A DNA stretch of 47,023 bases, filler included, from Sphacelaria rigidula (GCA_964200075.2; 2 parts of 2 records of this genome joined end to end with filler, not necessarily neighbours in it); one strand, 5' to 3'; shown: positions 4,146 to 46,840, counted from the first letter of the whole stretch. The notes: generated by a model not told the origin, from the letters alone. Numbers and translations: made by a program.

Positions 4146-6290
4146 TCACGGTTGTTCAGCAGAGCCGCGAGAAGAGCTGTCATAGTTGTCTTCCCGGCCG
4201 GGCAAACATCCTCGCTGACCGCTGTCCCTTTCATGCTTTTTGCGCCGAATTTCCCGCAGCTCGATACTCCGCCTGCGGTTCTCTTTGCCAAACTGAGGAT
4301 GGTGGAAGCACTCATTTGTAGTGTGATTCTGGGGGTTCCTACACAGAGGTATTTCACAGCGTCCGTTATGGTGATCGCGAGGACGGCGCTGGGGAGGAGG
4401 ACCCTGTAGAGTCCGACGGCGACCACCACCGCGACTGCGATCACCCGAGTCGTCTAGCACCCGTTTCGGTGGTCGAGGGGTAGTATCATGGGTCGGTGTA
4501 GTTTTGCGATTGACCGAGTCATTTCGCACCCGTTTCACTGGCCGATGGTTGACACCCTGGGTCGGTGCAGTTTTTTCCTCACATTGTCGTGCACGTGACT
4601 CGTCGTCGTTCGGCGATGGGACTTTTTCAATGGCTTTATCGTATCGCTCATGGATCTCATTTTTTCCGGCCGCCGTCGAAGTCTTCCGGTCGCTTGACGA
4701 AGACTTTGTGGGAGAGTTTACGTCCAACGCAGCATCATCATTCGTTGACGGCGATTCGGTCGGGTCAGTGGCCTTCTTCAGTTTGGTCTTGGTGGAGCAG
4801 ATGTTGTCACTGCTGTCAGCAGCAGCTGCTTCGATCGTTTTCGCCCGACTGGCCGACACAATGACATCATTGACTTCGGCACGAGCAAGGCACTCCTCAA
4901 AATTAGTGCATGCAGGCTCGGCACGCTGCGCCCGGCGCAGGTGAGGAACGAGGCCTTTCTCGAAAATTCCTATCTGCAACACCTCCCACACTGATATCGC
5001 ACTCTTTTGGTGTTGCATTAGCCGGTTCAAGTGATGGTTTAAAGCCAACTGGCGTCCGGCATAGCTCCGGACCGATTCTCCGGGGGCTTGACGCATCGAT
5101 AGTAAGGCCATGCATGTGCGTGAGACACCTTCTGCCGGCAAGAAATTGTCCTCTAGAGCGTCGCACACTTCCTTCCAAGTCGACGGCGGGCGGACTCTTG
5201 TATCCGTCTCACTCCCCATCGGTGGAGCGGCTGACATGTCATCAGCATCAGGGTCGGTATCAGGCGGTACGGTGGGTTCCCACACGACACGTCCTTTCAT
5301 CAGCAAACGAAACCACTCTTTGGCGGGATCCTCCAGCACAAAAACAACGTCTCGCAAATGCGCGGTGTTGAGATCTTCCGCGGTGATCTCCGGCCTGTTC
5401 AATCCCACCTTCACGCACGCGCTGAACCCCCGCAGAGTATCCTTCAGAATCGAGGGATCTTTCCCACTGAACTTCGGCACGTCTCGGAGTCCTGGGGGTG
5501 TGTTGCGAACTTTGTGCTCTCGAATTGACGGCTTTTGAGCCATCGAAGCCGTCTTCGACGCCTGGGCAGCAGGTTGCCGGGCCATCTTACTCAGTGCGTC
5601 GAGTGCACAGATGCCTGCCTGGTCAAGGTCGCCGTCCTGTTCGAGTTTCTGCGAGACGAACCGCCGAAGTTGGCGTTCCAGGGCTGGTGATTGCGTTGAT
5701 GGTGATTGGGGCCCGGTAATCGCCGGTTCTATTGTGACAGCTGCTGCGGCTGCCGCTGCCGCCGGGGCGGGCATTGTAGCCGAGGACAGATGGCCTGAAC
5801 GTACGCCTACATTTGGAGAAATTGAAGAATTGAGACCGCCTTCAACAGGTGCAGGATTGCTTGCGCGTACAGACGGCAAGCCCTGGGCTGAAGCTTTACT
5901 ACGGTGCTGTGGTCGTTGTTCAACAACGCCGATTCTTCGCTGTACATCTTCAGATGTTGGCCACCCTGCGTCTTCCCCATGCATAGCTGAATACTCAACA
6001 ACAGACGGTAGGCTTGGTTGCCCGACCACCGTACCACTCACAATATTCGCGGGCTCGCCAGTGTCTATGCGCCTCTTTTCCTGACGGCTGGTGCGTGTAT
6101 TATCGGTGTCTGTTACGGGTTTGGAGGACACTACCCCTGAGACAGAATTTGCCTTGTTAGGAGGTACGCCACGGACTCTTCCGTCGCCGCTTTCAAACCC
6201 TCCATCATCAGACCGTTTGGGTGGGCTACAATCTTTTTGTTGGTTCTGATCCTCGCCGCTTTGCTGCCGCTTCTTCCCATCTCCTCCCAT
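4146..6290 (-). CDS. gag: Intact Ty3/gypsy-type Gag protein (capsid domain + atypical CCHC knuckle), ~714 aa, stand-alone
   Basis: Uninterrupted ORF; preferred ATG at 6290 in ACAACATGG context (the frame is open to 6389). Capsid motifs VPKFSG, LEDPAKEWF, TWKEVCDALEDNF, LSMRQAPGESVRSY, FEKGL (~4875-5490). CX4CX5HX4C knuckle at 4308-4358, followed by a basic tail. Confidence 0.85.
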   Translation of the reverse strand: MGGDGKKRQQSGEDQNQQKDCSPPKRSDDGGFESGDGRVRGVPPNKANSVSGVVSSKPVTDTDNTRTSRQEKRRIDTGEPANIVSGTVVGQPSLPSVVEYSAMHGEDAGWPTSEDVQRRIGVVEQRPQHRSKASAQGLPSVRASNPAPVEGGLNSSISPNVGVRSGHLSSATMPAPAAAAAAAAVTIEPAITGPQSPSTQSPALERQLRRFVSQKLEQDGDLDQAGICALDALSKMARQPAAQASKTASMAQKPSIREHKVRNTPPGLRDVPKFSGKDPSILKDTLRGFSACVKVGLNRPEITAEDLNTAHLRDVVFVLEDPAKEWFRLLMKGRVVWEPTVPPDTDPDADDMSAAPPMGSETDTRVRPPSTWKEVCDALEDNFLPAEGVSRTCMALLSMRQAPGESVRSYAGRQLALNHHLNRLMQHQKSAISVWEVLQIGIFEKGLVPHLRRAQRAEPACTNFEECLARAEVNDVIVSASRAKTIEAAAADSSDNICSTKTKLKKATDPTESPSTNDDAALDVNSPTKSSSSDRKTSTAAGKNEIHERYDKAIEKVPSPNDDESRARQCEEKTAPTQGVNHRPVKRVRNDSVNRKTTPTHDTTPRPPKRVLDDSGDRSRGGGRRRTLQGPPPQRRPRDHHNGRCEIPLCRNPQNHTTNECFHHPQFGKENRRRSIELREIRRKKHERDSGQRGCLPGREDNYDSSSRGSAEQP

Positions 6291-6899
6291 GTTGTCTGTT
6301 GTCTGACGCAATGTTTTTTTTTTTGTGTGTTGAGGTGGGTCGTGTTGCCTTGAACACATAATAAATAATAACCTTGTCGCGCGTAGCATTTTTATCCTTC
6401 ACTTTGTTAGCACGATCAAGGTCGACGACCACAACTTGGGATCTGTGCAGCGAAGTTTCTTCGCCATACTGATTCCTCCACCGCATGTCCACGCCTGCTG
6501 TGTGTGTATTTGTGTGTATATTTTCTGTAGGGATGTGTACAGATACCGTGCGCTGCTTTGCTGCGCTGTTCTGTCCTCTCTGTACTGTACCGTCTGTATA
6601 TTGTCTGTGCTGTACTCTACGAACATCACTTTCGTACCACATCTGAGGAGGTGAGAAAAAAACTGCGGACCAGTGCTGCTGCATCTTCCGGAGGAGGATG
6701 CCCTCTTGTCGCCGGCCTCTGAGGTACGTTGGGGGTTTTGGGTAAGCTTCCGAATCTTCTTAGTTGCGTGTCGTTTTCGAAGCCGTCATCATCGTTTGAC
6801 TCGGATGACTCGCTGATAAGCCATCGAGCACTGGAGGTTGCGAAATACGGGTTGACCCCATCATCTGTCCGCCCGTCGTCACATTTCCTTTTCTGATCG

Positions 6900-11200: not shown

Positions 11201-11674
11201 TCAGTAGCAAATGACATATCTTACCCGAGGATAGGCGGGGGTAGTTCTGAAAGACTACTTGTGATCGCAAGCCAATGGAAAGCTTCGACACGCCGGGCAG
11301 ATCAGCTCCCTATAGCCCAAGCGAGCTCTTTTTGAGCGTAGCTCCCTCGTGAGCTATGAGAGCTGCATGAGCTACGCATGTTCTCCCTGGGGTAAGATGT
11401 GAGAGCTGTATGAACTACACATGTTTACCGTACGTGAACTACCAACCCGTAGCTCATCAGCTCATATTCGTCCTGGGGTGAGCTATGGGAGCTATATGAG
11501 CTACGCGTGTTTACCGTACGTGAGCCACCAACCCGTAGCACATCCGCTCAGATCCGTCCTGGGTGAGCTATATGAGCTACGCACGTTTGCCCTGGGTGAG
11601 CTATGAGAGCTGCATGAGCAACACATGTTTGCCTTGGATAAGCTATGAGAGTTAGGAGAGCTACGATTGCTTAT

Positions 11675-11781
11675 CCCTTTGACCGCGAGGGTAGGAGGTC
11701 TCTGAATCGGCGTCATTCACACCCGAAAAATAAAGTGAGTTATGCTGATTTATGAGATGGCCAACCCTCGCGGTCGAAGGG
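11675..11781. mobile_element. piggyBac-like MITE (107 bp)
   Basis: TIR CCCTTTGACCGCGAGGGT / ACCCTCGCGGTCGAAGGG; flanks TTAT and CTAA resemble a mutated TTAA TSD. Confidence 0.65.
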
Positions 11782-11785
11782 CTAA

Positions 11786-11886
11786 CCCCTTGACGGCGAG
11801 CATAAGTCATCTGTTGAATCGGCTCCAATTTAACTTGTAAAACGTATGCATGACCAGATGGACTCGTACCCTCGCGGCCAACCGAT
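11786..11886. mobile_element. Second, more diverged piggyBac-like MITE directly abutting the first
   Basis: CCCCTTGACGGCGAG ... ACCCTCGCGGCCAACCGA; shares the CTAA junction with the previous copy. Confidence 0.5.
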
Positions 11887-14116
11887 CAAAAGAAATGAGT
11901 CGGTCCATTATTGTAGAAACTGAGTATCAATACTTTTTTCAACTATCCGACCAAGCGAACGAGGATATGTGTCGGCTTCTTTTTTTCCTATCGCGAAGAG
12001 TGAGGCAAAACATCACAACCTAATGATATGTGGCCCATCCGTTCGAACAAGAATGTTACATCATACGCGACACGGGGTTGGCCAGCGGCGAGCTAGGCAA
12101 ATGACGTGAGTGAGCCACGACCATGTGTCCCTAGGGTGAGCTACCGGGCGTAGCTCATCCGCTCATGCTTTCCCCGGGTGAGCTACAAGAGCTGCGTCAG
12201 CTACACATGTTTGCCTTGGGTGAGCTATCAAGCGTAGCTCATCCGCATATGTTTTCCCTGGGTGAGCTACAAGACCTACATGAGCTGCACATGTTTGCCC
12301 TGGGTGAGCTATCAACCCGTAACCCATCAGCTCATATTCGCCCTGAGTGAGCTATGGGATTTGCATAAGCTACGCATGTTTACCGTACGTGAGCTACCAA
12401 CCCGTAGCTCATCAGCTCAGATCCGTCCTGGGTAAGCTACGACGTCGTATGAGAGCTGCATGAGCTGCGCATGTTTGCCCTGGGTTAGCTACCAACCCGT
12501 AGCCCATCAGCTCATCTTCGCCCTGGGTGAGCTATGAGTGCTGCATGAGCTACGCATGCTTGTCCTGGGTGAGCTACCAACTCGTAGCTCATCGGCGCAC
12601 GTTTACCTTGTGTTGAGCTATCGGAGGTAGCTCACATATACATGTTTGACTATAAGTGAGCTACCGCCCGCAGATGAGCTTGCTCATGAGCTGTCCTACG
12701 TGTGAAAGCTCTCCTGCGATGCATTCTGTGTAACAAAAAAAGGACATCTTTGTTTCAAGATTGTAAACTAATGGCCAGCTTAGCACGTTGGGCGTGAAGC
12801 CGCTATTTGTCCGAGTTGAGATAGGCTGTCAGTTTCACTTTTTTTAGCTTCAAGTTTGCTCACCCAACCAGATGTTCCAGGTATCTCAGAGCGAGTGTGG
12901 GCTGAAACTACAAGTACCGGTGTTTCCCCTGTATACGTGTTTCGTTGTGTTCCGGCCAACGATACTGGAGCGACATCAGCTTTTGTTTTCAAAAGCAATC
13001 TGTAGCGGCAATTTTCGAGTAATATATGTCAGGTTCCGTTTGCGTGAGAAATACTCAAATGCTCTCTTTCTCTCCGCTGCCCAGCTCATCTACCATGAAA
13101 CGGGTTGCAGTTCACACCCAGCACGGGGCGTGTCGTCAACGCGGCTCAAATCCGCCGTCAGCTGCCCCACCAGTTGTGCTGCTCTACCAAGTCTACACGG
13201 GACTGGAAACAAAGTTTTGAAAAGTACAAGCTGAGCCGGCCACGACTTCGCTGCTGCAGCCCACTGGCCACGCGCGGCGCAATATTTCGAATTTCGGGGT
13301 GAAACTCCGACCCCAGATAAACTCAGAGGCTAACCCCTGGCCAGGAATCAAATTGATTTTTTGTTTTCACCCCAACTCCACATGACGTCATCCTTTCAGC
13401 TGTCTGAACCCCCCTTGAAGAAGAGAAGAATAGAGACAAGATCTGATCCCTTATCGAGCGTAGGCCCACGTGTCGCCTAGCTGGTGTCAAAATGTCACCT
13501 CTTTATTCGATAATTGCGCCGCGCGTGGGTGTTTTTGCGTAAGTAGTGGCTGGATGGAGGCTACGAGCTTGGTCGGCCTGAAACCTGATACCGTATTCTT
13601 CCAACCAACATACCTGGAGAACCGTGGCGAGATATCGCGAACAATTTCTGTGACCGGGAGATGGCCCATTCGTAAGCTCCGGCAGCTCTTGATGTACTCG
13701 AACGTGTTCCATCCGTAGGAAAGGTCGTGTACCGGTACATATGCTGGTCTGCGCAGCGTGAGGTTACCCACGAGGAAAACGAGCATCCCTTCGCGCCTTT
13801 TCGTGCATGTGCAGTATATGGCAGACGAGAAAAGCTTTGAGATGATGGTTAATATTTTCATGGGTGCCGTGTGAACGAGGTCGCGGCCGTACGAGACGCG
13901 GTTGAACCATTGAAGAAAAACGTCACGCGAACAAGCAATGGGATGCTTCGAAATCAAGGCTTCACCGGATAACAAGGCCTCGGGGAGTTAAACGTTACAT
14001 CTCAAGGTACAAAATTCACACAAACCCTATCCTTGTCATCCATACTCTGAGCCTACTGCTTGGTGATAAATCCCGGCTCCATGTCAGTGGGTTACTGTGC
14101 GCTTTGAAGACCTTTC

Positions 14117-22032: not shown

Positions 22033-23203
22033 CGAGCTGGGTCAGCCTAGTGGCGGATCTGAAGTTTGCAGGCCTATAATCGTTTATACATAACAGGGTT
22101 TTCGTGAGATTGAGAGTAGATGATACGATTGAGAGAGGCTTTGATCATTCGCTTTAAGTGATTCATTTTTATTCCACGTGTGCTTTTCTTTTCCTCCATT
22201 AATTGCGTGTGCTTACAGCTACACGTCGATATCCTACCCAGGGATATCAAGGGCCTCAGTGGCCAGCTATTATTATCGCAGAAAGCATGTTGAGCCTCGT
22301 AGAAGTGCATTTCGGAACTGAAACGATTCACTCACTGGTTGACCGCTTTTCACTCCCAATCGTATCATCTACTCTCAATCTCACGAAAACACTGTTACAT
22401 TTTGAGTTGGACCCTGAAATTTGGTATGGACAATGTATAGGGCATAAAGAAAAAAATTACCTCGGTACCAAAAGTTTTTTTTTTTTAATCAATTGAACGC
22501 ACTTTACTAATACCTGAGAACTGATTATTGCCCTTAGATCATGGAGAAAAACTAAAAACCTTTTGGTACCGAAGTAATATTTTTTTTCATGCCTTAATCA
22601 TTTTCCATACCAAATTTCAGCGTCCAACTCTGAGTGTATAAAAAAGCCTGGGCCTGTCAAAAACCGGGTCGGTAGAAATCCGGAACAGTATTTCGCAGAC
22701 CACTCACCGGCCCACGTTTGGTTTTCGTGTATTGAAACTTTGTGTGGGCGCTCTCTAAGGCATAATTGACAAAAAAAAAGTAGGTCAGGTTGTTTTTTTT
22801 TCATTTTTCTTCACTGGTTTAGGGCGTTCTACTATGGTAAAGACCATTTCTTCACGAGAACGCCCTAACCTCTATGAAGAAAATGAAAAAAATGGAGGCT
22901 CGTTTTTTTTTTCGGCACTCTTTTGTGGTTCTCCACACCAAAATTCGTCGCCATCCACTGAAAAATGCATGGATCGGGAGATTCATAGAGATTTTAGTAT
23001 CGGGGCTTCTCCCTCAGGTATAGGAATTACTAGACATGGGGTATAATCAACGAGAAAATATGGGCCCAAACTTTTGAGCAGATGGGCACCTTCCCCTTGA
23101 TTAGACGATTAGTACGATATTATGCGGATCACGGCCCAACTCGTCTATGTCGATGCGATATTGCTTTTAGAGCTTAAATCCGTGTCTAGGCTGGCCCAGC
23201 TCG
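22033..23203. mobile_element. Non-autonomous Tc1/mariner-like element (1171 bp)
   Basis: TIR CGAGCTGGGTCAGCCTAG / CTAGGCTGGCCCAGCTCG with TA on both flanks; no transposase ORF. Confidence 0.8.
22403..22630. repeat. Internal inverted repeat (~73-bp arms)
   Basis: GAGTTGGACCCTGAAATTTGGTATGG...GGTACCAAAAG versus CTTTTGGTACC...CCATACCAAATTTCAGCGTCCAACTC. Confidence 0.8.
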
Positions 23204-26007: not shown

Positions 26008-27849
26008 TCATAGAACCCCCTGTTGTTTGGACTTGAGGCGCTGAAGACACCAAGATCCGCGTGGTGCAGATGGACTAGTGGTGTATAGCGCAGGCCGGAG
26101 CTTAAGCTGTGTGGGTCCCGGGTCATTGATGAAGCGCACGATGTATCTGTCAGCAGAGACTAGATTAGCGGAGTGAGTCTGACCCAACCACCAGAGGTTG
26201 TCGCTGCCTTTGAACCACAGGTAGGAGCCCTTGGGTAGTGTTTTCTGGTTTGCGAAGAACTTTGCTTCACAAATCTTGGTGGGAACCAGTTCGTAGCCAT
26301 CGGCGACAAAGCGTAGGCGTTGGTCGCGGTGCACTTCGCGGGCTGCTGCACCACGACGTATGATACGATATCTCTTGTTGTGAGCAAGATGCTGATGTTG
26401 GGGTTGCGTCCAGTATAGGAGGATTGCACGGCGGTGCAATTGAAGGTCGGATTCGCGTTCCCAAGAAGCTCTCCGAAGACCTTGCCAGTGGGTATTATAC
26501 ATGATGGCAATTTTGCCATCTCGACCACGAGTGATTTGGTTGCCGGATATGGCGAAAACCGTCAGGCGGAGGGACTGTTCCGTTACGTCATCAGTAGTGA
26601 CGTGGTAGGGCGGGGACTTAGTCGAGTAGCTGTTGAGAACGTACTGTGTAAATCCTGTAGGCAGGTACTTGGGCATGTCACTTGTATCATGCGGGTTCGT
26701 GCATGGTTTGCACCTGTGCACGCAGACACGGGGTTTGGCGTCTTTGCCCTGAAGGTCGCGAGGTAGATCGAGACAGAGGAGTTTGTCACCAACGGGTTTA
26801 TCATCCGGTGAGGATGGCGTTGGACCGACCTTCAGAATCTTGAAAGGTCCTGTCCAATTGAGGGAAAATTTTGCCTTCAAAATTGTTTCGTCGGCTGCCT
26901 TGCTGGAACCACCCTGGCGGATGGTCGATGGACTGTTGTAGACCCAAACCCAATCACCAACTTTCCAGTTGGGGCGTTTGTGCATTAAGTTGTAGAGAGC
27001 AGTGTTAGATCGCTCCAGGCGCGAGGTGTTGATAGCGTGTTGTTCGCGCACGAGGGTAAAGGCTTTTCGTTGTCGTGAATGCGCTAGCTCATGATAGGAT
27101 ATCTGATCCTGATCCAAGCCTTGGTGGCCATCGGACGTGTGTCTTTCAATCACGGTGATAGGTAGCCGGGGATAACGTCCAAGATGGAGTTCGTTCGGAG
27201 AAAGGCCTGTGGCGGCATGAACCGAGTTATTGTAGGACAACATAATGTGTGAGAGATGTAGGTCCCAGTCATTTTGGCGGTCGTTGACGACAAGAGAGAG
27301 CATTTGGGCCATGGTGTGATGAACTCGGTCGGTACCACCGTTGCCGTTAGGGTGGTAGGCGCTCGTTGCAGTTTTGCGGATGCCCAGGAGCTTGTGAAGC
27401 TCCGCAGAGAGATCTGAGCAAAATTGATGACCATTGTCTGACAGAAGACGTTTCGGGCAACCGTAGTGCTTGATGTAGTCGTGGACAAATATGTCGGCCG
27501 TTCCTGCTGCAGTGAAATCTGCAGCGGTTACCGCCTACATGGACGCGTGGCGGCTGAAGCGGTCAGTGAAGAGTAAGATGTAGCTGGTGCCGCGCCCTGT
27601 GGGCGGTAGAGGGCCGAAATAGTCAAAGGACACAAGGTGGCCGGGCGCGTTGGAGAGTCCCATAGAGATGACTGGCCAGCGGACTGTCTGCCGTGAACTC
27701 TTTCGAGCTTGGCATTTGAAGCATCGCCGAATCCAAAAGCGGGTGAAAATGTCCATGCCAACCCACCAGTAAAACCGTTCTAAGAGCGCTAGGGTGCGGG
27801 TGACGCCAAGGTGACATGACAAGTCTGTGTGACAGCCTTTCATGACCTA
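26008..27849 (-). pseudogene. pol: Integrase: HHCC finger, catalytic core, GPF motif, chromodomain, PWWP/Tudor-like tail
   Basis: CHTDLSCHLG...CFKC, FDYFGP, LLSDNG, YHPNGNGGTD, WTGPFKI, YNTHWQGLRRASWERESDL; in-frame TAG stops at 27535-27537 and 27847-27849. Confidence 0.92.
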
Positions 27850-28215: not shown

Positions 28216-29300
28216 CTAACATGGCGGGGTTGGTAGCGGGGGGACAGGTGACGGGGCAGAAATGCCTACGTCATTCTCCGCTTCGGGGGCAGGGGTTGTC
28301 GGTCTTGCCGTCATAAGCGGCGGAGTTGAAGTTGTGCGCGGCGAAGAAGGTCCGCGGCGCGTGTTGTTTGTTGCAGTAGTGATTGCGGAGCGTTGCGGGC
28401 CGGTCCGTAGGGCCGGCGCTGCGTGGCTCGCAGAACTTGCAGCTGTCATCGGTGGCGGCGGGGCACTTGGGGGGTTGGTGCGGGCGGCAGACCGACAGCG
28501 CGTGTTGTCTGAAATCAGGTGGATAACCGAGGGTGTCTCCGTGAGAAGCTTGGCGCGAGTACCAAAGGTCCAGAAATCGACAAAATCGGAGATTGTGGGT
28601 TTGATCCCACCCAAGACGGCGTCATAGGGCAGAGGGCGAGGTCCGCCCATATGCACACCAGTTTCTGGACATTGAAGGTCAAGGGCGTAGACTGGCGTCG
28701 AAAAAGGTCTAATAGGGTAAATCCCAGGTTCGTCGGGTTCCGTTAGACGGCAAGCCGGGATGGAATCTGCGGCTGTAGGCGGCAGGGGTAATCGGGAGAG
28801 AAGATCAGCGTTCCCGTTGGTTTTACCTGGACGATACTTAATGGTATACTGGTATGCTGTTAACAACTCCAACCAGCGTTGTACACGCGGGTTGTGTTCG
28901 CCGACCTTGGCGAGTTGCTCGAGTGCCCCATGATCCGTGTAGATTTGAAAGGGCACGTGAAACAGGTATTGTCGAAGGCGCTTAATGGTCCAGGTGATAA
29001 CTCCGCCTTCCAGTTCTAACGGGCTCCAGTTGGCCTCATTGGGCAAGGTGGCGCGACTGATGTAGAGAAGAGGTCGAACAGAGCCATCAGCCTGAGGTTG
29101 ATTCAAAACTCCTCCGAATCCCTCTGTGCTAGCTTTAGTGTGGAGTTGGAAAAGGCGAGAGCCGTCTTGCACTGCCTCCCAACCGGGGAAACAGAGGACC
29201 GGTTTTTCGGTGAGCGTTTTCAGTAATTCGTGGGTCTATTTTCCATCTCGGTGGTGAAGGAAAACACGGCTCCTTTCTTGAGTAGCTCGGTGAGGGAGCG
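28216..29300 (-). pseudogene. pol: RNase H domain and linker of pol
   Basis: FQLHTKASTEGFGGVL, NWSPLELEGG, FQIYTDHGAL, RVQRWLELL, YRPGKTNGNADLLSR; frameshifted from the RT near 29300; TAG at 28216. Confidence 0.92.
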
Positions 29301-30690
29301 GGGCGTATCCGTTTAGATAAATTCGGCAAAACAATTCGGTAGTAAAATAGCCCGCCCAACAATGAGCGTAGTTGAGAGATGTTAGTTGGCATCGGTAAGT
29401 CGGTCATAGCCCTGACTTTGTTCGTATCCGGATGTAGGCCTGCGGGCGAGATGGAATGCCCCAAAACATCCAGGTCAGTCGCGCCAAGGCGAGCTTTGGG
29501 TGGGGACAGTTTCAAATCGTGTGTTCGCAGTCGAGAGAGAAATTCTCGCAGAGTGCCGATATGTGCAATAGGTGACGCATCGAAAGCGATAGCGTCATCT
29601 AGGTACATGATGATGTACTCGAGGCCCTCCGTAACGCGTTGCATTAAGCGTTGAAAGCATCCTAGAGCGGTGGCAGCGCCTTGTGGCATTCGGAGCCATT
29701 CATACAGCCCGGACGAGGTACAAAAAGCCGTAAGTGGCACCGTGTCAGGGTGGATAGCATTCTTGAAGAATCCAGAAGCGAGATCGAAGGTGCTGAATAT
29801 TTTTTCTTTACCTAAAGAGTCGAAGACTTCATTAATGCGGGGGATTGGAAGTTTATCAATCACGGTGACGCGGTTCAACCGTTGGTAATTCACTGTGATG
29901 CGTATGTTGCCGTCCTATTTAGGGACAACCACAAGTGGCGAGGCCCAAGGAGAGGAGGAATGTTGTATTAGTCCTGATCCCAAAGACGCATCCAAGATGG
30001 CGTTAACCTGTTTGGTAACGATTGGGTTCGTCCTGTATGGTCGGGAAGAGATCGGCGTGACCCCGGGTTGGAGGGTAACTTCAAAGGGCAGTGTTTTGCA
30101 ATGCCCAAGATCCGTCTTGGATCGGGAAAATCGGTCTTGGTACTCTAGCAGAACATCACTGAGTTCTTGGATGACTGCCGGTTCCCAACCGAGCCCATGA
30201 AGGTCAAAATTGATGTCGCGCATGTGTGGCGGCAGTTGGTGCCACATGTGCAAGAAACTATTCCGAGAACCTGGTGATAAGCATTGAAGCACTTCAGCAG
30301 GAGGATCGGAATTTGACTGGGCAGGATCCACGGTGTGGACGTGGGGTGGAGTCGCGGAGACAAGGTCGAAATAGGGTTTATCGACACAATGGACTCACTC
30401 TGCCAGAGATGTGGCGTTAGGCGCTGCAGGCCCTGTGACGCACGTCTCGAGTGGGATGTGCATCAGGGGAGCAGCGGCGATTCCGAAAACATCGCCGGGT
30501 TCCAAGTTAGCATGGCCCGTAAGAGGGAGGAGTTGTTGTCCCGCCGACACAAAATGTTCTGTGTCGGCTGGTACGCCAATACGGGGTAAAAGTTCAGCAA
30601 GATAATGGCCCGCAAGTGCTGGCATGCCATTTCGGCGAACTAGTGCAACTTCAAGAAGTTGGGGGTCGTCGGAGAGTGTAATACCCACGC
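29300..30690 (-). pseudogene. pol: Ty3/gypsy reverse transcriptase
   Basis: SSPWASPLVVVPK*DG, VNYQRLN, FSTFDLASGF, LTAFCT, YEWLRMPQG, MYLDDA; in-frame stops at 29915 and 30395. Confidence 0.95.
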
Positions 30691-30813: not shown

Positions 30814-31150
30814 TTAGTGGTGTAAGCGTGCGGTAGGTTCGTTCATTGACCGCATATAGCTATCTCTGCCCAATAATATGGCGTGATGCATTGTGTGATC
30901 GGGGACGATGTATGCCCAGACTACCAGGCTGGAAGATCGAGTGGTGTTGTGAAAGAATTGTACACTGAGACGTAGGAATTTTCGTGTTGTCAGTGGCGCG
31001 GCAGAATCACCGAAACTGCCCCACACGCGAGGTTTGGTGGTGGTTTCGCAAGCTGCAGTAGCAGCGCCAGTCTGTTTCATGTGTTTCCATGTTGGTTCTC
31101 GAAAACATGTTTGCGGGCTGCCGCTGTCCAACAAGGATACGCATTTCGTA
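30814..31150 (-). pseudogene. pol: Retropepsin aspartic protease
   Basis: LLDSGS active-site motif and ILLGRD motif; frameshifted relative to the RT. Confidence 0.85.
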
Positions 31151-32112
31151 GGCGTGATAGCGTTTGGACCGGCATGGAATGCAACGCAGTAGTGAAAGTG
31201 GCCGGATCGACAGACACTTTGCCGCCGACAAGATCCGGACCGTGTTCCGGCAAGGTAAACTGGTCAGGATCGGCGTGGCTGACAGCAAAAACAGAAGGCG
31301 GTGGGTCCGTCGGTGGGTCAGATTCTCCATCAAAGAAGGGGGTGAACGGTTTATCATTTCCAGGTGTGGCACGGTCAGGATAACCATTAGCGATTTCCGT
31401 CTAAGGCAGATCGAGATTGTTGTATGTGCCTGTAGTCGTCCATTGAACAAGAAGAGGAGTCAGAAATATCTGATTTCGTTTCTTCCGTGATACTTGATAG
31501 AGCCGTCGAGCTCAAAGCCGTCGCATTTTGGAGGGATGGAGGTCGAGGATTTCCGCTCGAAAGAGGGGTACGTAGTGATGCGCGCGCGTCCTTGTGGGCA
31601 TGCTTACGGGGCTTTCTCTCTCGCCGCGACAAAGGGCGGGGAACTTCCAAAGCATTTGGAGATGAGACCACAACTGCGTCCAGTCGGATGGATGGGGTCA
31701 GCATCGGGGCATGATGGGGCGAAGGTTGTGGGCTGCTTTCCGTAGGCAAGCTTGGCGGGAGAGACATGGCCGAAGGTATTCTGGGGCAGTTGTTATTTGA
31801 ACCTGCCAAAGCTAGTTTTGCGCGGGTTGAAAATCTCGTGGAAGGAACTCGATCTAGCTTATTGAGGACGACATGATCCGAAGTGATCAAATTCAAATCA
31901 GCACCCCTGAGGTCAGCTGAAAAACGCTTGTGACTACCTGTGCGTGCGGTCGCTGAGGAAAGCCGTTGCCTCAGGAACTGGCGGTTGGTCTTCCCACACC
32001 TCAGACTTACACTCGATACTGAAGGACAAAGTTCAGGGCCGGGTGTAGGTATAAGTCGCGGATTGACACAACTGTTACGCGGTGTGCGGAGGGGTGAAGA
32101 CTGGGGTCGAAA

Positions 32113-32392
32113 TGAACGGCCGTCGGTTGCGCTCCTGTATATTGCCGGGGGAGCCGGGCGAACACTCTTAGTCGCGGGCTCTGCGGGCTGTGTTGCAAAG
32201 TGTGTGGAGGTCGAAGACGGGGGTCGAATCGAACGGCCGTCGGTTGCGCTCCTGTATAGTGCCGGGGGAGCCGGGCGAACACTCTTAGTCGCGGGCTCTG
32301 CGGGCTGTGTTGCAAAGTGTGTGGAGGTTGGAGACGGGGGTCGCACTGAATGGCCGTCGGTTGCGCTCCTGTACAATGCCGGGGGAGTCGGG
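32113..32392 (-). repeat. 120-bp in-frame tandem repeat (~2.3 copies, 40-aa unit) in the gag-PR spacer
   Basis: PPALYRSATDGRSIRPPSSTSTHFATQPAEPATKSVRPA repeated in ORF 31387-32409. Confidence 0.9.
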
Positions 32393-32776
32393 TAAACAAT
32401 CTGAGTCACGGACTCCGCGGGCAGTGTTGAAAAAATGTTCGAAAGTGCTGTCGGCGGCGCCGAAGACTTGAAAACGCCGGCGTTGTTGCATCATGGGTCT
32501 AAGCGATCCGAACTGAAGATACCAGGGTTTCTGGTGTTGGGGTTCGAGCTATGTGTCGGTCCCGTCCGCTGATGTCTATCAGCGGAACTATGATTGGCGC
32601 GAGATGTATGATCTTGCTGGCGAGTGCCGGAACCGTAGTTGGTGTTTGGCCCGCGCGTGCAATTCAAGCGATTGTTGCCGCGGTTGTTCGAATGGCTACG
32701 ATTATCACCACTCGGAGCACGATAATCGCGCATTCGTTTTTGCCAGCGGCGCCACGCGGGTTTATTGTCCTGTAGT

Positions 32777-33562: not shown

Positions 33563-36500
33563 CGCTGTGATGAATCCGTCGATGATCTGCGTCAGTGAAG
33601 AGGCACAGTCAGGCTAGCGGCGAGAGATGGCGCAGTGTAGGGCCTTATGTAACGGTGTCTGCCAACCATCGACCCAATCAGCATCGTCAAACCGCTGAGC
33701 ACCCGTGCGATCCGCTACAGTACGCAGAATGTTGTGTACAGTACGGCGGATGGATTGGATAAGACTCGACGTACACTGTACAGAGTGCTCATTGTCTGCT
33801 GCACGCATGGTGTTAATATGCCATAATTTCTTGACGTCCATCTGTATGTACTCTCTCTGTATGGCAGCCACGCGGGCAGCTTCAAGTTTGACAGCTGCTG
33901 CAGCCTCGCGTGTTGCAGTCTGTGCTTGGCTAACAGCGGCGGCTGCTAAAGCGCGGGCCGAGGTTGAAGACAAAGGTCGATCTTTATCATCCGTGTCAGA
34001 CAAACCTAATATCTCGCGGGAAACATCAGCTAAGCGAGGGGTGTCTCGCCTAATGTTGATGGACTCCACAGGAGGGGGTCCGTTGACGACCCGTCTCGGT
34101 TTCGAGGTCTTCGAGAAGAACCGCCCGACGAGCCCGAGCCCCGGCGCGTCCAATTTGCGTGCTGGGCAGCACGGTTGGTCCGCCGGCTGTTGGCGCCTCG
34201 ACGTCCTCCGCCGCTGGACCCGGAGCCGTCATGGCGGCCGCCTCGTCCGCCACCTTTACGATCATCATTATCGTAGTTGCCTTTAGGCGGGCGGCAGTTG
34301 GCGGTGACCGGAGTCCATCCATCATCGTCATCGTCGTGGTCGTCGTCCGCAGAAGTGCCGGACTGAAAGGCGTTCCGGAGAGCCTGTAAAAGGTTATGGG
34401 CCGCCCTCTCGTATACGTCGGCGCCGCTGTTGGGACCCGTGGTGGCGTGGGCCACCAGCTGGGCGAGAGTGAGGTCGTGGGGGTCCTTAACCGGGAGTGG
34501 CCCGCCCTGGTCGAGGTAGAGACCTAACGCAACCAGAGCGCTGTAGTGAATGGCGTCCCAGGCAGTCCGCGAGCTCTACAGAGGGTTCTTGATGGAAACC
34601 TTCCCAGAAAAGTCCCGAACCGGGTGCACTAGCCAGGTGGCCTCATGCGGAGCGAGAGAAAGGTCGGGGGTGGCTGCAGGGGCGGCATTGGGAAAGCTAG
34701 TATCGTGTTTGCGGGGTATGTGATACCCGGCAATTTGTGAAGAGCTTGAGCCTGATGGCGCGGTGTCCACCGTGGTCCGCTATGGGGGCGGAGAAGGGTA
34801 AAGCGACATGACGGTGTGCGCGAAGTCTGATGTGCCGCAAGCAGATGTTTCGCCGACATAGCGTGCTCCGCGGTACGGTCTATGTGGGCCACGAGCTCGG
34901 CAGCCTTCCGTTTTCAGTCGGCCATTACCGGTTGATGTTCGACTTGGGCCCGGAGGGCGGCGGAGGGTGCTGCTGCCGCGGTTGTGGAGTTCCGCTGCAG
35001 ATTTGCTTCTTTCGTGGCGTACTCTTCCCGAAGAAGGCGGGTTGCAGTATCGTCGGCCTAACCGTGGCCGCGGGAGGCGGGGTTGGCGCCGGAGGGGCCG
35101 CCGGCTGGGTTTGCATGTCGTCGGCCTAACCGTGGCCGCGGGAGGTGGGGTTGGCGCCGGAGGGGCCGCCGGCTGGGTCGGCATGGCCGGCCCCGGGGGG
35201 GCAGCTCGATACAGAGCGATGATCTCGTCTTGCCGGACTCTATCATGCTCTAGAAAGAGGCACGGGAGGTACCCCGTGGGGCAAAACTCCGCCGAAAGTC
35301 GCGGCTGCAGGAGACCGTTGGCCGTGGAGGGCGTCGCGGTCTGGCCGCCGCGAGCGATCGTGAGTGCTGTCGCAGGCACGGTGGTCTCAGTAGAGACAAC
35401 GGGTGTGGTGGCGGCAGGGGCGGTCGACACTAATGGGGCAGCCTTCCCGGCGGCCGAGGGTGCCGTAATGGCGCGCTTGGCGGCGGAAGGAGAAGCCGAA
35501 GTAGGGGTCGTTGCCGCCGAAGGAGTAGCTAATGTCTGTTTGGTCGACATGATCTGTAGCAGGGAGTGTTGTAAGTCCCAAACCTGCTGTTGGAGCGTAC
35601 GGATAGTGACGGCATCGACAGCGGCGCGGCATGGGACATCGCGGTTAGATCGGGCTCGTGTTTGATGACGCCGGGGTGCACGAAAGGAATTGTCACTAGC
35701 TTTTTCAATCGAAGAAGCTGGGTCCGATGATAAGTTGGAGAGAATATCTCTGACATCTTCCACATGCACGTTGTCATTATGACGTGAGGGATGTCGATGT
35801 TGCTAACGTCGGGTAGACGAAGCGCGACTACTGGTGTGACTGTGGCCGGATGATTGTCTAGAGCCACGCGAAGAGCGGTGGCCGCGGCCTGGGCTGCCCC
35901 GATGGGAGTGGCTGTCACTGTCAGTTTTATTACGTCGATTAGAAGTAGAATGTTCTAGGGCACGAGCTCGTCGTCCGTAGGGAGCGGAGGATAGGCGAGA
36001 GTGATTTCCATCTCGGCTTCCTCGCGGAGACTGCGCAGTTCGCGTAGGGATCAAAGCGGTATCAGTACGAGCTGCAGTAGTCGCGGTACTGCGAGCGCCG
36101 CGAGCGACCTGCGCGTAAGAGGGGCGCGCCTGAGGCTGTGGCGTATCGCCGTAGAATGTTTTGAGCCCTTTGAAAAGATGTGTACCTGGATCGTCAGAGG
36201 AGCCAGGTAGAGAATTGACAGTGTTCTGGAGAGCCGAAATCAGGGCCTCAATCATTGTGCCGGGACCAGATGGCGGGGTGCGGCGCGTTGGACTCTCAGA
36301 TGCCGCCAGTTGAGGGCTACCAACACGAGCAGCACCCGTAGACGGGTTTCGAGCTCCGGAAGCGGATCGCTTTGTTTCCGAACTGGACGCTATTACTGAA
36401 ACTGCCGTCCGAGGCGCATCTGAAGTTGTCTTCTGAGCCACTGATCCAAGAACGGCATCCGTGGGAGCATGCCTCAGCAAGGGGGGCACATCGGCACTAG

Positions 36501-36940: not shown

Positions 36941-38097
36941 CAAGGGCAGCCTGTTACCTGTACTACGAAGGACCTGTAATTCCTGCGCCCAGGCAATGTG
37001 GTGCCCGAAAAGACAGAAACAATGAAAAGCTGTATTCAGTCGATGCTGTGCTATGGCGGAACGTTGAACAGGTCAAAACGAGGGAAGCCTACTGTCGGTA
37101 CTTCGAAAGGCCTGTGCCGGTAAAGACGGGAACAAATATTTCTGCACGCAGTCAAATACTGTGCCGCGGCGCGGTGTCAAACAGGTAGAAACAGTGGCGG
37201 CCGACTCTCCGTACCAAAAAACTTGTCGCGGTAGAGACGGAAAAAATAGTGTCTATACTCAATCGACGCGGTGCCACGACGTAACGTCCAACAAGCAGAG
37301 AAGAGGGCAACCTGCTGTCGGTACTCCGAAAGACCTGTGCCGGTGAAGACAGAAACAAACATATTCTGCACGCAGTCAAATGCTGTGCCGCGGCGCGGTG
37401 TCAAACAGGTAGAAACAGTGGCGGCCGACTCTCCGTACCAAAATACTTGTCGCGGTAGAGACGGGAAAAATAGTGTCTGTACTCAATCAACACGGTGCCA
37501 CGGCGTGACGTCCAACAAGCAGAGAAGAGGGCAACCTACTGTCGGTCCTCCGAAAGACCTGTGACGGCGAAGACAGAAACAAACATTTTCTGCACGCAGT
37601 CAAATGCTGTGCCGCGGCGCGGTGTCAAACAGGTAGAAACAGTGGCGGCCGACTCCCTGTACCAAACTACTTGTCGCGGTAGAGACGGGAAAAATAGTGT
37701 CTGTACGCAATCAACGCGGTGCCACGGCGTGATGTCCAACAAGCAGAGAAGAGGGCAACCTACTGTCGGTCCTCCGAAAGACCTGTGCCGGTGAAGACAG
37801 AAACAAATATTTCTGCACGCAGTCAAATGCTGTGCCGCGGCGCGGTGTCAAACAGGTAGAAATAGTGGCGGCCGACTCCCTGTACCAAAACACTTGTCGC
37901 GGTAGAGACGGGAAAAATAGTGTCTGTACGCAATCAACGCGGTGCCACGGCGTGACGTCCAACAAGCAGAGAAGAGGGCAACCTACTGTTGGTCCTCCGA
38001 AAGACCTGTGCCGGTGAAGACAGAAACAAACATTTTCTGCACGCAGTCAAATGTTGTGCCGCGGCGCGGTGTCAAACAGGTAGAAATAGTGGCGGCC
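36941..38097 (+). repeat. 223-224 bp tandem array (~4.5 units), each a dimer of related ~112-bp monomers
   Basis: GCAGTCAAAT..TGTGCCGCGGCGCGGTGTCAAACAGGTAGAAA at 37149, 37373, 37596, 37819 and 38043; degenerate monomers at 36941-37140. Confidence 0.95.
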
Positions 38098-38699
38098 GTT
38101 GTAAAGATGTCCGTGGGCACCGGATGGTTTTCGCACGGGTGTTTCACGCAAACAACCCATGAACAAACCCTGCAGTGAACTGTGTACAATTCTTTGCTGC
38201 AAAGCGAAATGTGGTCTGGCGAGAGTCCACGTCAAATGCAGCAGCTGCCTATGAGCAGCGATGCACTTGGTGCAGCGTTTCCTGCCACAACCTGGGGCAG
38301 AGCGTGTGTCCTGTCGAAAAATAGAACACGGGCGGGGCGAAAATGCTAAAGACGTTAGCCGGGGTGCGTAGCCGTTCTATATATAAACAAACAGGGAAGG
38401 GTGCCTGTGCAGATATAACGAGGAGCAGGAAAGTGCAGATGCGCACCAAAATATGTGCACAGGTCGTGTGAACGACTGTTGTTGCAGCAAGCCGCTAGTC
38501 GCCAAAAGGCTGTAAGGCACAAGTACTATGTACGGTACACACACGGAGAAAAGCATATGCAGTAGCTAAGAGCTGACTACGTAGCAAGCGGAGGCAACTA
38601 GCTCCGGGGCGCTACAAGTAAATTTGACTACTACTAACGAAAATCCAAGAAAAGAGGGAACGTCGGTACCTGTAAAAGCAACCAAAGACTGCTACGGGA

Positions 38700-41219
38700 A
38701 CGTGATGCGATTCGAGAAAAACAGAGACCACTCCGTTGTAAAAAAAAAGGAAACGCAACCGCAAGGGGAGAGATTCCTTTGTCGAACGCCAATTGTCAAG
38801 GGGATAGGCCGCGTGCATGAAGTATACGAGTCGCTAGCAATACTCGGTGAGTATACAAGACAAGAGCCCAACAACGGACTCGAGAAATCAGTGACTGTAA
38901 CCCTTGATGTGTCCGAGGTATTCTTTATGATCTCACGTGTAGGTTTAGTATATCTCTTGGTTAAATGCTGGGCGTCAACCTTCTTCTGCTTATCAAATCT
39001 CTCACGTTCAATCGCACTCGTCTCCCTCACCTCTCTTCACCCAATCTCCTACGTGTGGATAGTAATATATGAAGACTCACAACACATCGACATCTTCATA
39101 CCGCAGTCATTATGTGCACCTAGCCACAGCTGCTTAACTGCTGCGGACAGTTGGGAGGGTAAGATGGCTTCTTCGCTCGGTCGTAAGTGTTTCGCGTCAT
39201 CCCTGCAAAAACGAAATGCCACCTCAACCTCATTGTGAGATGGACCCCATTTTCCAGGATCCACTGTGATGATGATTGTGCACACAGTGATATATAAAAT
39301 ATGTGCTTCATATTCGACAGTCTAGCGTTGGTTTGGCACTCGTATCATCCGAAGACTAGGTATAGTAGTAAGAGAAGACAAGAGCATCGGATGGAGCTCG
39401 ATCACTCATGTATATGGTACGCAGCCAATCTTGCCAAGTGGTTGATGCCCCTGAGGCTTCCCGCGAAACTGCAGGCGGGACCACAGGCTTGCTGAGGAAA
39501 ATAGTAGTTTGCACGTTGCAGGCGCTGATGGACTCGGTGTATTGGCCGCACGATGGGATTTTTTGCTGGATTGTGTTAGGAGAGTGTAGTCGACAGTGAG
39601 TGGCAAGTGCAACGAGATAGGTATGCCAGAGAGAGGAAACATGTGATGCGCGGTAGCCTGAATAATGTCAGCAGCCCGATACGGTACGCTGTAGTATAAA
39701 AACTTCAAGCTGTAAAATACGGTACCTGGCCGTTGTTTTTTCACCGAACTGCTGAGAAACGACTCTTCTTGTTCAGCGTGTGAGTCCAGTTTGCCGAAAC
39801 AATTGGAATATATCAGGTGGGTAGGTAGAGGTGGTGAAACCTTTCCAACCATCATCAGCTTATACTCTCATCAAGTGTATGCCCAATCTCACCCCGCTCA
39901 CTGGCATGCACAGCAACCTTCCGCTAGTCTTGCCTCACCTTTTCACATGCTCTGTCGTGATGGGCTGTCTCATGACCCACCACGCCAGGATGTTATCGTG
40001 TACCCCGTATCAACAAATACTACAAACGGACCTAACTTCGTATTGCACACATAAATCCCTCACGGACTTGTTTTCGATCGCGACTGACCCACGGTAGCAG
40101 AAGCAGTAGCATATGCTTCCCAAATGTGCTGTGTTCGCAACCATCAATCACTTGAGGTATCTCAAACTCGACGTTCCCGATATAATTAACAGTGATTTTA
40201 CATTTATTTGAGTATATCGGGAAGCTCTAGTTTTGAGTTTGAGATATCTCAACTGTTGCAACAATAAGCTCTGTGTCGCTGGTTCAGTGAAAAGCAGCCG
40301 CAACGCTCCCGCTGCTGCAGCTCTACGGCTTTCATGCATGAAGACTGCGACTTGGCTGCGGGGGACGCCCTCTGCGAGTAATACACCCAAATGGTTATTA
40401 AATCAACAGCTCATCTCCAGACACCTCGCCGACTCAACCATTACATTGAAGGAGAGACGATCAATCAACCCCTCCGCCGCCAGGGTGGGTCGTCTGCTGA
40501 AATGAAACACCTTCAATCGAAATTGTGACTCTGGGCGCAAATGACTCACCCTGACGAGTAATGGGCTGCTGCAGAAACCCCTAACGTCTCGAAACATGAA
40601 TCTGACTGACAACTTCCAGAAAAAACCTGGCAATTGTGCCACGCAGAACACGGACGCCCTGGGGCGGTCTGTGTCGTTCATAATGATATCTAAAACAGAA
40701 AAGCCAGAGTTTGCTTTCCGCAGCGATAATGCACATATTTTTACTGTATACATTCATACCGTATTCAGGTTATAGATGCGCAACGTTGCTTGAGCAACCG
40801 CTGCAAAATGACAGGGACTGATCTACTAAGCCCTGAATGTAGGTTAAGTCAATTATGTATGTACACGCCGCTAGCTCTCATTTTGGTCGACTACATGCTG
40901 CAATGTATTGAAAGTTATCACAGGTATCTCAAGCTCAAGTTTTCCCGCATATTCAACAGTAAAGCCAATACTCCAGCAGCAGGCGAAATGTGGATCAAAA
41001 CCCCTTCAAGTCCCGAGCTTCTGACCATTCACAAGAACAAGAATGTATAGATGCGTGTTTCTCCGCAGTTCGGTCGAATGACATCAGCCTGTGTTTTTTA
41101 TTCATTGAAGCTCGGTTCAACAGCATAACAGTGGCCGGCACCGTATTTCTTTTTTCCATTGGCTTAAAACATCCCATTTTACCGCGGATTTTCTGGCTCC
41201 TCCTGTTTTCCTGGCTCAT
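38700..41219 (-). pseudogene. Probable decayed KDZ-superfamily (CxC/HMGXB3-like) transposase
   Basis: Fragments in the expected order: LRIYNLNTV*MYTVKI (~40780), KTSGRLLCMPVSGVRLGIHLMR (~39930-39865), PLPTHLIYSNCFGKLDSHAEQEESF (~39830-39760), TVFYSLKFLY. These resemble TGG...CPHG...GFHLM / P..IIYDNAC.L / F.VDRFH. Many lesions. Confidence 0.4.
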
Positions 41220-46297: not shown

Positions 46298-46840
46298 CAG
46301 CACCACTCCCATACACACATGATTGCCGCGGGAAATGCGCTGTAACTTACCCTGCAAAACTGTTGTTATATGGACAGTTTGTTTATAAAACAGCCATCAT
46401 CCATTTCGAGGATGAAGCTTTTCATCGAGGACGGAACACCCGGAAATTAATGTTTTTGCATCACAAATAAAATACAAAATATGGTACCATTCCTTCACCT
46501 GCTAGAAGCTTTTGACAACTACTACGCACGCCATAAAAGTTGGATTCCGATTACCGATATTGGGGGTTACTACGTGAAAAACAAAAATGTCGAGAATTTG
46601 GGTGATGCGATCGGATCACCTAGATTCCCAATAAATACTGTTTCTTCACCTAGGACCCCAACATGTCGGTTATCAGAATCTCAATTTGCATGGCGTGTAG
46701 TAGTTGTCAAGAGCTACCAGCAGATGAAGTAATTGAACCATATCTCGAAGAATTGGTGTGGATGCGAAGGTATCATTTTTTCGAGTTATCATCCTCAAAG
46801 CAAAGACACTTTCTACGATAGCCCCCCCCCCCAAAACGTG

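Follow-up and report, generated by a model that had tools for sequence, protein, structure and literature searches.

What does a brown-algal retrotransposon carry behind its integrase, and could that extension hold the integration machinery on chromatin? Here, we address this question for a Ty3/Gypsy long terminal repeat (LTR) retrotransposon of Sphacelaria rigidula (GCA_964200075.2), found in a 47,023-nucleotide stretch of DNA (filler included), hereafter the window. The integrase tail (window 26035-26571, minus strand) stands at the end of the minus-strand frame 26008-27534 and is preceded by a GPF motif (26842-26850), as an original prediction from the sequence alone had said. That prediction placed a chromodomain-like block at 26410-26565 (residues 24-75) and a second, PWWP/Tudor-like block at 26041-26238 (residues 133-198), both exactly, and proposed that together they read two histone marks. 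We report that the tail holds two tandem folds of Royal-family type, predicted to be a chromodomain and a Tudor-like barrel, joined by a basic linker and kept among the copies of the family. Residue numbers follow P0001 (window 26011-26634). The tail consists of the following parts.

26404..26571, minus strand: predicted chromodomain, group II-like (residues 22-77; model, VIA, profile, cage counts, dN/dS)
26239..26403, minus strand: conserved linker (residues 78-132), with a basic helix at 87-104 (26323-26376), a short strand and a short helix leading into the barrel (model, counts)
26035..26238, minus strand: predicted Tudor-like five-stranded barrel (residues 133-200; separate model, Foldseek, VIA, profile)

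Fold and conservation of the integrase tail

The window tail itself (208 residues) had no Pfam match at E<=1, and the domains were therefore assigned from family profiles and predicted structure. AlphaFold2 on the tail, with a 70-sequence alignment, returned a mean predicted local distance difference test (pLDDT) of 88.8 and a predicted template modelling score (pTM) of 0.79, in the order chromodomain, basic helix, five-stranded Tudor/SH3-like barrel. Modelled strands at residues 26-36, 42-50 and 57-60 are followed by a helix (61-76) in the first block; the linker has a helix (87-104), a strand (114-116) and a second helix (119-127), and the barrel has strands at 138-142, 148-155, 163-168, 174-178 and 195-200. 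The pTM, which refers to the whole tail, suggests that the two domains are placed in a defined way relative to each other in the model; Foldseek and VIA found no solved structure covering both with a low root-mean-square deviation (rmsd). Against solved sequences, the family profile gave 13 matches at E<=10, five to chromodomains over the first block and eight to PHF19/PHF1 Tudors over the second. Family members matched Agenet (11/70), SH3_VIII-1_N (myosin SH3; 12/70), Chromo (8/70) and PWWP (1/70, E 0.12) in Pfam, all below the cut-offs. The fold methods draw on a single source of alignments and so are only partly independent; the positions and classes that they give are concordant.

The first block is modelled as a chromodomain, with a three-stranded sheet and a C-terminal helix, at middling scores: it superposed on the Chp1 chromodomain in VIA (Z 7.0, rmsd 1.6 over 53), and the family profile matched Swi6 (E 0.014), MPP8 and Oxpecker over it. 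The linker that follows has a median net charge of +7 and keeps R103 in 25/25, R93 in 23/25 and R99 in 22/25 rows.

Modelled alone (pLDDT 88.9), the second block is predicted to be a five-stranded SH3-like barrel that superposes on Tudor domains. Foldseek ranked the PHF1 Tudor first (E 0.026, rmsd 1.7 over 47) and the first PWWP domain 38th. The best family-profile matches over this block were PHF19/PHF1 (E 0.018), and 9/10 matches of a barrel-centred profile were PHF19/PHF1 Tudors (PHF19 E 0.034). VIA gave a tie between Spindlin (Z 6.3 to 6.5), RDM15 (6.1), PHF1/PHF19 (5.8 to 6.2), one PWWP (5.8) and the TraI domain (6.7), with Spt5 KOW and UvrD also among the best scores. Tudors and other SH3-like barrels (KOW, TraI, myosin SH3) thus lie within one unit of Z, and the Agenet and SH3_VIII-1_N counts are similarly close. 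Protein Atlas, queried with residues 105-203, scored hypothetical proteins best (0.84), and named families at 0.78 to 0.81 (Spin-Ssty, KIF2A-like, PTM/DIR17 Tudor, Tudor-knot/MBT and SAWADEE), all below 0.9 and taken as a lead only.

For a PWWP domain, we take a Pro-Trp-Trp-Pro motif where strand 2 begins and a helical bundle behind the barrel to be defining. The motif position reads L-W-W-L here, with proline in 2/62 rows at position 150 and outside the six commonest residues at position 147. No helical bundle is seen past the barrel in the models, which end before the true last 20 residues, and one is unlikely because the tails past the last strand are short (<=31 residues in 66/79 motif-bearing proteins, 15 to 16 in one subfamily). 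With both motif prolines missing and no helical bundle evident, we class the second domain as Tudor-like and not as PWWP, and the PWWP half of the original label falls away; the single Pfam PWWP match against 11 for Agenet and the PHF1/PHF19 Tudors as top matches point the same way. The other half stands: the block models as a Tudor-type beta-barrel and is conserved among copies, the two properties on which the original prediction had staked it.

The origin of the barrel was sought by profile comparison. With hhalign, it reached 0.6% against the family's own GPF domain and 3% against a Gypsy-10-like Tudor (1% for whole tails), in a test without power, since its positive control (a canonical chromodomain set against the family's chromodomain) reached only 1.8%. 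No host donor emerged among the 8000 candidates scored with the barrel-centred profile, in which all 11 longer proteins lay within the family's score range and 8 carried a precomputed integrase domain.

The family is very abundant in the genome (1189 candidate matches). All of the 150 scored spanned at least residues 26-189, at 72-100% identity, and held both domains; these are the best-scoring of the 1189 and thus biased to full length. In databases, 34 proteins were 39-55% identical to the tail, 32 of them covering at least 94% of the region, and 472 representatives matched at E<=0.001; the one homologue with a species name came from Sphacelaria rigidula. Net ratios of nonsynonymous to synonymous substitution (dN/dS) were calculated between two subfamilies of 4 and 24 genomic copies, with 2 intermediate copies excluded. 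They were 0.04 for the chromodomain, 0.17 for the linker and 0.04 for the barrel (90% bootstrap 0.00-0.14; 60 replicates, 8 of the 24 copies), compared with 0.03 for the integrase core and 0.09 for the GPF-bearing region. On these values, purifying selection acted on the tail as strongly as on the catalytic core during the family's active period. In one database gene model (P0035), the linker and barrel of the family are joined with extracellular domains to which they bear no relation; this model is probably a chimeric prediction.

Aromatic cages and proposed function

The original prediction had asked whether aromatic cages are conserved in the family, and in both domains they proved incomplete. 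Counts were taken on rows at least 85% filled and at least 30% identical (32/70 for the chromodomain, 62/70 for the barrel). Mapped through a HMMER alignment to Swi6, the three chromodomain positions expected to match HP1 Y24, W45 and Y48 were aromatic in 2/32, 30/32 and 1/32 rows, so that only the middle residue, W50 (26485-26487), is retained. By this alignment, the domain is not an HP1-like, methyl-lysine-reading group I chromodomain, and the loss of the cage is family-wide rather than a decay of the window copy. In the barrel, the positions matching PHF19 cage residues W50, Y56, F74 and Y80 were aromatic in 0, 58, 51 and 0 of 62 rows; W149 (58/62) and F168 (51/62) are the counterparts of two cage aromatics, and the other two have none. 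D170 (56/62) and P174 (59/62) are also kept, and one subfamily has Phe at position 144 (14/62). As aligned, the barrel is not a methyl-lysine-reading Tudor of the PHF19 type.

The cage loss is specific to the window family, because another lineage of the same genome (27,214 contigs) retains all three chromodomain aromatics. A Pfam-Chromo search of the genome gave 34 matches (150 scored), and 27 of the 30 loci fetched (L086-L112) belong to this third lineage, in which one chromodomain is followed by a basic helix and then a stop; on visual inspection, the first two aromatics were present in 27/27 and the third in 26/27. It is possibly ECR-like. Three further loci (L083-L085) are short chromodomain exons, presumably resembling those of host CHD-type remodeller genes.

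We read the tail as a two-domain chromatin tether of the Ty3/Gypsy integrase that biases insertion without canonical dual methyl-lysine reading, a reading we hold with about even confidence. The tail would hold the integration complex on chromatin and thereby bias where new copies land; contact would be made by the arginine-rich helix and by conserved surfaces outside the cages, with nucleosomal DNA, the nucleosome surface or a chromatin or host protein. Two methyl-lysines in canonical cages would not be read. Precedents exist for each domain. The tandem Tudors of PHF20L1 are described as binding nucleosomes through DNA, with methyl selectivity lost (PMC13285377); group II chromodomains are reported to reach heterochromatin by unknown means (PMC12786077), and those of plants that lack cage aromatics are nevertheless found there (PMC3350952). 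In brown algae, H3K27 methylation is reported absent and H3K9 methylation sporadic (PMC13076208), and such a background fits the loss of an HP1-type cage. The wider setting invoked by the original prediction also agrees with the literature, in which brown algae are described as having lost DNA methylation and PRC2 and as using repressive H3K79me2 (PMC13076208); the present results give no link between the two domains and that mark.

Several points weigh against a tether of this kind. Each domain match is weak, with no Foldseek hit at E<=0.001, no VIA Z of 8 or more and Pfam matches under their cut-offs, and in VIA the barrel scored best against the SH3-like domain of TraI, which is no chromatin domain. 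The cage mapping uses HMMER sequence alignments, the rows are not independent (near-relatives and decayed copies), and the Y80 equivalent was extrapolated just past the alignment (the next position is aromatic in 1/62). The strongly conserved W149, F168 and D170 could form a non-canonical pocket. For ECR elements, it is reported that targeting is not accounted for by the chromodomain on its own (10.64898/2025.12.07.692804), and the proposed tethering function is drawn from sequence and models.

That possible pocket is the core of one rival explanation, in which W149, F168 and D170 of the Tudor barrel would hold a methylated lysine or arginine (e.g., H3K79me2, H4K20me or H3K36me) while the chromodomain and the helix add affinity for the nucleosome. 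The retention of these residues and of P174, the neighbouring Phe-144 of one subfamily and the identity of the best sequence and Foldseek matches, which are H3K36me3-reading PHF1/PHF19 Tudors, argue for it; Tudor cages are described as having 3 to 5 aromatics, often with aspartates, and as tolerating residue swaps (PMC13285377). We nevertheless judge it rather unlikely, as only two aromatics stand at cage positions, both perhaps retained for the fold, and the PHF19 W50 equivalent is aromatic in no row. In PHF19, whose cage is W50, Y56, F74 and Y80, the W50A change is reported to abolish H3K36me3 binding (PMC7105160). The stronger claim of the original prediction, a bivalent reader in which chromodomain and PWWP/Tudor domain each bind a methylated histone residue, asks for two such pockets. 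Its structural part held, in that two tandem Royal-family-type folds are predicted and both are strongly selected, and brown algae do have an unusual set of marks (PMC13076208). Canonical bivalent reading is argued against because both cages are incomplete across the family, with one of three aromatics in the chromodomain and two of four in the Tudor domain, half or more being lost in each; the prolines of the PWWP motif are lacking, and brown algae are described as having the usual ligands of chromodomains sporadically or not at all (PMC13076208). We consider it distinctly unlikely.

The tail could also have no targeting role at all. Its barrels might then act in the integration complex, help to assemble particles or bind the RNA or cDNA of the element itself, much as an additional SH3-type C-terminal domain of the integrase would. 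The best VIA scores, which include the non-chromatin SH3/KOW folds of TraI (Z 6.7), Spt5 and UvrD, are compatible with this, as are the incomplete cages and a basic helix that would suit any nucleic acid, and both activity and specificity of the Tf1 integrase are reported to vary with its chromodomain (PMC3350952). On the other side, chromatin proteins supplied the chromodomains and Tudors that the profiles matched among solved structures (13/13 for the family profile, 9/10 for the barrel profile), and reader-type domains are described at the same position in all four Gypsy lineages of Ectocarpus (PMC12477816). A role outside targeting therefore seems unlikely to us, and a chromatin tether remains our preferred reading.

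The element, its copies and other repeats

The element is a Ty3/Gypsy (Metaviridae) LTR retrotransposon, as shown by the order protease, reverse transcriptase, RNase H, integrase and by an LTR with a probable primer site. Its remaining features in the window are as follows.

26022..26038, minus strand: 3' truncation point (about 26026); alignment to other loci ends here in 29/29
26701..26973, minus strand: GPF-motif integrase region (motif 26842-26850); from sequence, with a weak SH3_Tf2-1 match in one relative (E 0.18)
27349..27846, minus strand: integrase zinc finger (H2C2) and catalytic core, stop codon inside; Integrase_H2C2 E 6e-13, rve E 0.0085 and 0.0013
28852..29160, minus strand: RNase H; RT_RNaseH E 2.4e-25
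29450..29911, minus strand: reverse transcriptase; RVT_1 E 1.1e-18
30850..31247, minus strand: aspartic protease region, spread over at least two frames; tblastn matches to P0264 and P0207 (relatives) at 49-57% identity
32777..36609, minus strand: presumed gag region, split over several frames; open reading frames, named gag from position
37030..38098, no strand assigned: array of five 224-bp units in tandem, in the long 5' leader that separates the primer site from the presumed gag; repeat families D1 and D4
38775..38791, minus strand: probable primer-binding site, TGG start two bases past the LTR end; sequence and position
38794..39013, minus strand: 5' LTR with CA end, first ~20 bases unlike siblings; siblings' 3' LTRs

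We take the GPF region to be the usual SH3-like C-terminal domain of Gypsy integrases. The copy is decayed and 3'-truncated, its pol interrupted by stops and frameshifts. Sibling reading frames run 17-20 residues further to a stop in 23/29 loci, and in the window copy about 20 final codons are lost along with the 3' untranslated region and 3' LTR. Since all 29 other loci stop aligning at 26022-26038, the last five codons of the window frame are not element sequence. A repeat search found no LTR pair in the window, owing to the truncation; the 3' LTRs of siblings L002, L003 and L012 align to window 38788-39029 at 78-88%. From these data, we infer an intact element of ~14 kb with an LTR of ~245 bp. 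The presumed gag region had no relevant Pfam match, Asp_protease_2 was a weak match in relatives of the element, and no NADAR match was found in the window. Two proline-rich coding arrays were seen, one of three 117-bp tandem units between the presumed gag and the protease (32096-32446), roughly at the NADAR place of a relative, and one of two 68-bp units within the presumed gag region (35039-35174). The 3' flank of sibling L025 is pol sequence of its own family and those of L005, L021 and L019 are other repeats, which may point to nested insertion.

A second Tudor-bearing lineage occurs in the genome. A PTM/DIR17-like Tudor gave 76 Pfam matches (150 scored), and a single copy gave 151 matches; 20 fetched loci (among L033-L082, e.g., L041:1171-1650, plus strand; G000:C1886) share one tail type, nine with integrase similarity. 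Their integrase is 21-25% identical to that of the window element, and the Tudor sequence differs. This is probably the Gypsy-10 lineage known from Ectocarpus, which, partly from a CDD label, we take to be its counterpart. Ahead of its Tudor, ~55 conserved residues have aromatic and acidic positions spaced much as in a chromodomain, and Chromo (0.81) was the only named family among the Protein Atlas rows shown for this segment. The segment had no sequence match in the PDB, no Pfam Chromo match in 10/10 members and no database relatives among 174 candidates; judged by sequence, chances are about equal that it is chromo-like and gives a second chromodomain-Tudor tandem. If so, two unrelated Gypsy lineages might have built such tandems independently, and that of the window family might, as one nucleosome-reading unit, recognize a repressive state such as H3K79me2 or H4K20me3 through a non-canonical pocket, a combination we regard as very improbable. 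Were it true, the tail would be a transposon-encoded probe for brown-algal heterochromatin.

Elsewhere in the window, a 750-codon open frame (4146-6398, minus strand; Retrotrans_gag E 8.6e-07) marks another retroelement, and dispersed inverted repeats (7372-7571/43766-43965, palindromic, and 16357-16462/43470-43575) are probably nonautonomous DNA transposons. Short elements at 22091-22397 and 46479-46743 resemble miniature inverted-repeat transposable elements and are bounded by inverted repeats of 45 and 47 bases; the former also flanks sibling loci L005 and L029. An array of 42- to 43-base units with alternating subtypes occupies 11349-12612.

Comparison with known elements and domains

Of the four Gypsy lineages described in Ectocarpus, three have a putative chromodomain, whereas the fourth, Gypsy-10_Ec32, carries a Tudor domain and is called the first transposable element to do so; the chromodomain lineages are placed outside the chromoviruses, and one of them (IV) has an N-terminal NADAR domain (PMC12477816). 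Lineage IV (e.g., Gypsy-12_Ec32) has its chromodomain after the integrase, as has the window family, and is of similar size (14,254 bp with a 268-bp LTR [PMC12477816], versus the ~14 kb and ~245 bp inferred here). A full-length relative, P0264, which is 48-51% identical to the window element from reverse transcriptase to integrase, has a NADAR domain at its N-terminus (E 3e-36); in four other long relatives, the sequence starts no earlier than the protease and is silent on it. By contrast, the published text on lineage IV mentions no second reader domain (PMC12477816), the window copy has no NADAR, and neither of the genome's two NADAR matches has pol similarity in its fetched flanks. Those two matches (L031 [G000:C4:35363-35809] and L032) share one contig, and L031 is 42% identical to the NADAR of P0264. 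The window family is probably lineage IV or its sister, an indirect assignment made from the published description, from the NADAR of P0264 and from the sizes.

In Gypsy-10_Ec32 and its Tribonema homologue, which come from the same host group, the Ty3/Gypsy integrase likewise terminates in a Tudor-type barrel; these elements form a separate lineage with a Tudor only, 11.5 kb long with 636-bp LTRs (PMC12477816). The window family is unlikely to be Gypsy-10, given its element size and LTR length and given that a Tudor lineage exists apart from it. The plant chromoviruses Tekay, Reina and Galadriel share with it a C-terminal integrase chromodomain that lacks the first and third cage aromatics and keeps the W45 equivalent and a (T/S)WE motif (PMC3350952); they inhabit another host group, and in the window family a conserved basic helix and Tudor barrel follow. 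ECR-1 and ECR-like elements are also brown-algal Ty3/Gypsy elements with an integrase-chromodomain fusion, and ECR-1 differs in its 6.6-kb length, single open reading frame and full set of three cage aromatics, with no second domain reported (PMC11541908, 10.64898/2025.12.07.692804). Chronos of oomycetes is described with one chromodomain and an additional archaeal-type RNase H (PMC5348765); in five long relatives of the window element, Pfam showed only the RNase H of reverse transcriptase type, no dedicated search for a second one having been made.

Among single domains, the PHF19/PHF1 Tudors are the closest solved match to the barrel (profile E 0.018-0.038; rmsd as above). PHF19 cage residues Y56 and F74 have aromatic counterparts in it and W50 and Y80 do not; the barrel also begins with an additional strand and helix, its loop ahead of the final strand is longer, and at ~20% identity direct descent is not claimed. 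PWWP domains belong to the same five-stranded class (Shuguo PWWP, Z 5.8, rmsd 3.2 over 57), and the K-x(4)-WW spacing of the barrel resembles their motif; measured against features that we take to define the LEDGF/p75 type, the barrel lacks the motif prolines and has a short tail past the last strand.

A survey of reader-transposon fusions describes mostly Chromo and PHD (10.1101/2021.11.30.470311), and searches of the open-access literature for an integrase bearing a chromodomain-Tudor tandem came up empty, with the Ectocarpus families compared by their published description. The tandem is real and conserved, and it is the tandem that, within that literature, appears to be new, single readers on brown-algal Gypsy integrases having been published in 2025 (PMC12477816). 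It extends that catalogue from single domains to a tandem and is a variant of architecture with an inferred function, not a new kind of system. A conserved module of ~180 residues, selected as strongly as the catalytic core, it bears on two questions: how cage-less group II integrase chromodomains are targeted, and how brown-algal heterochromatin is read without DNA methylation or PRC2.

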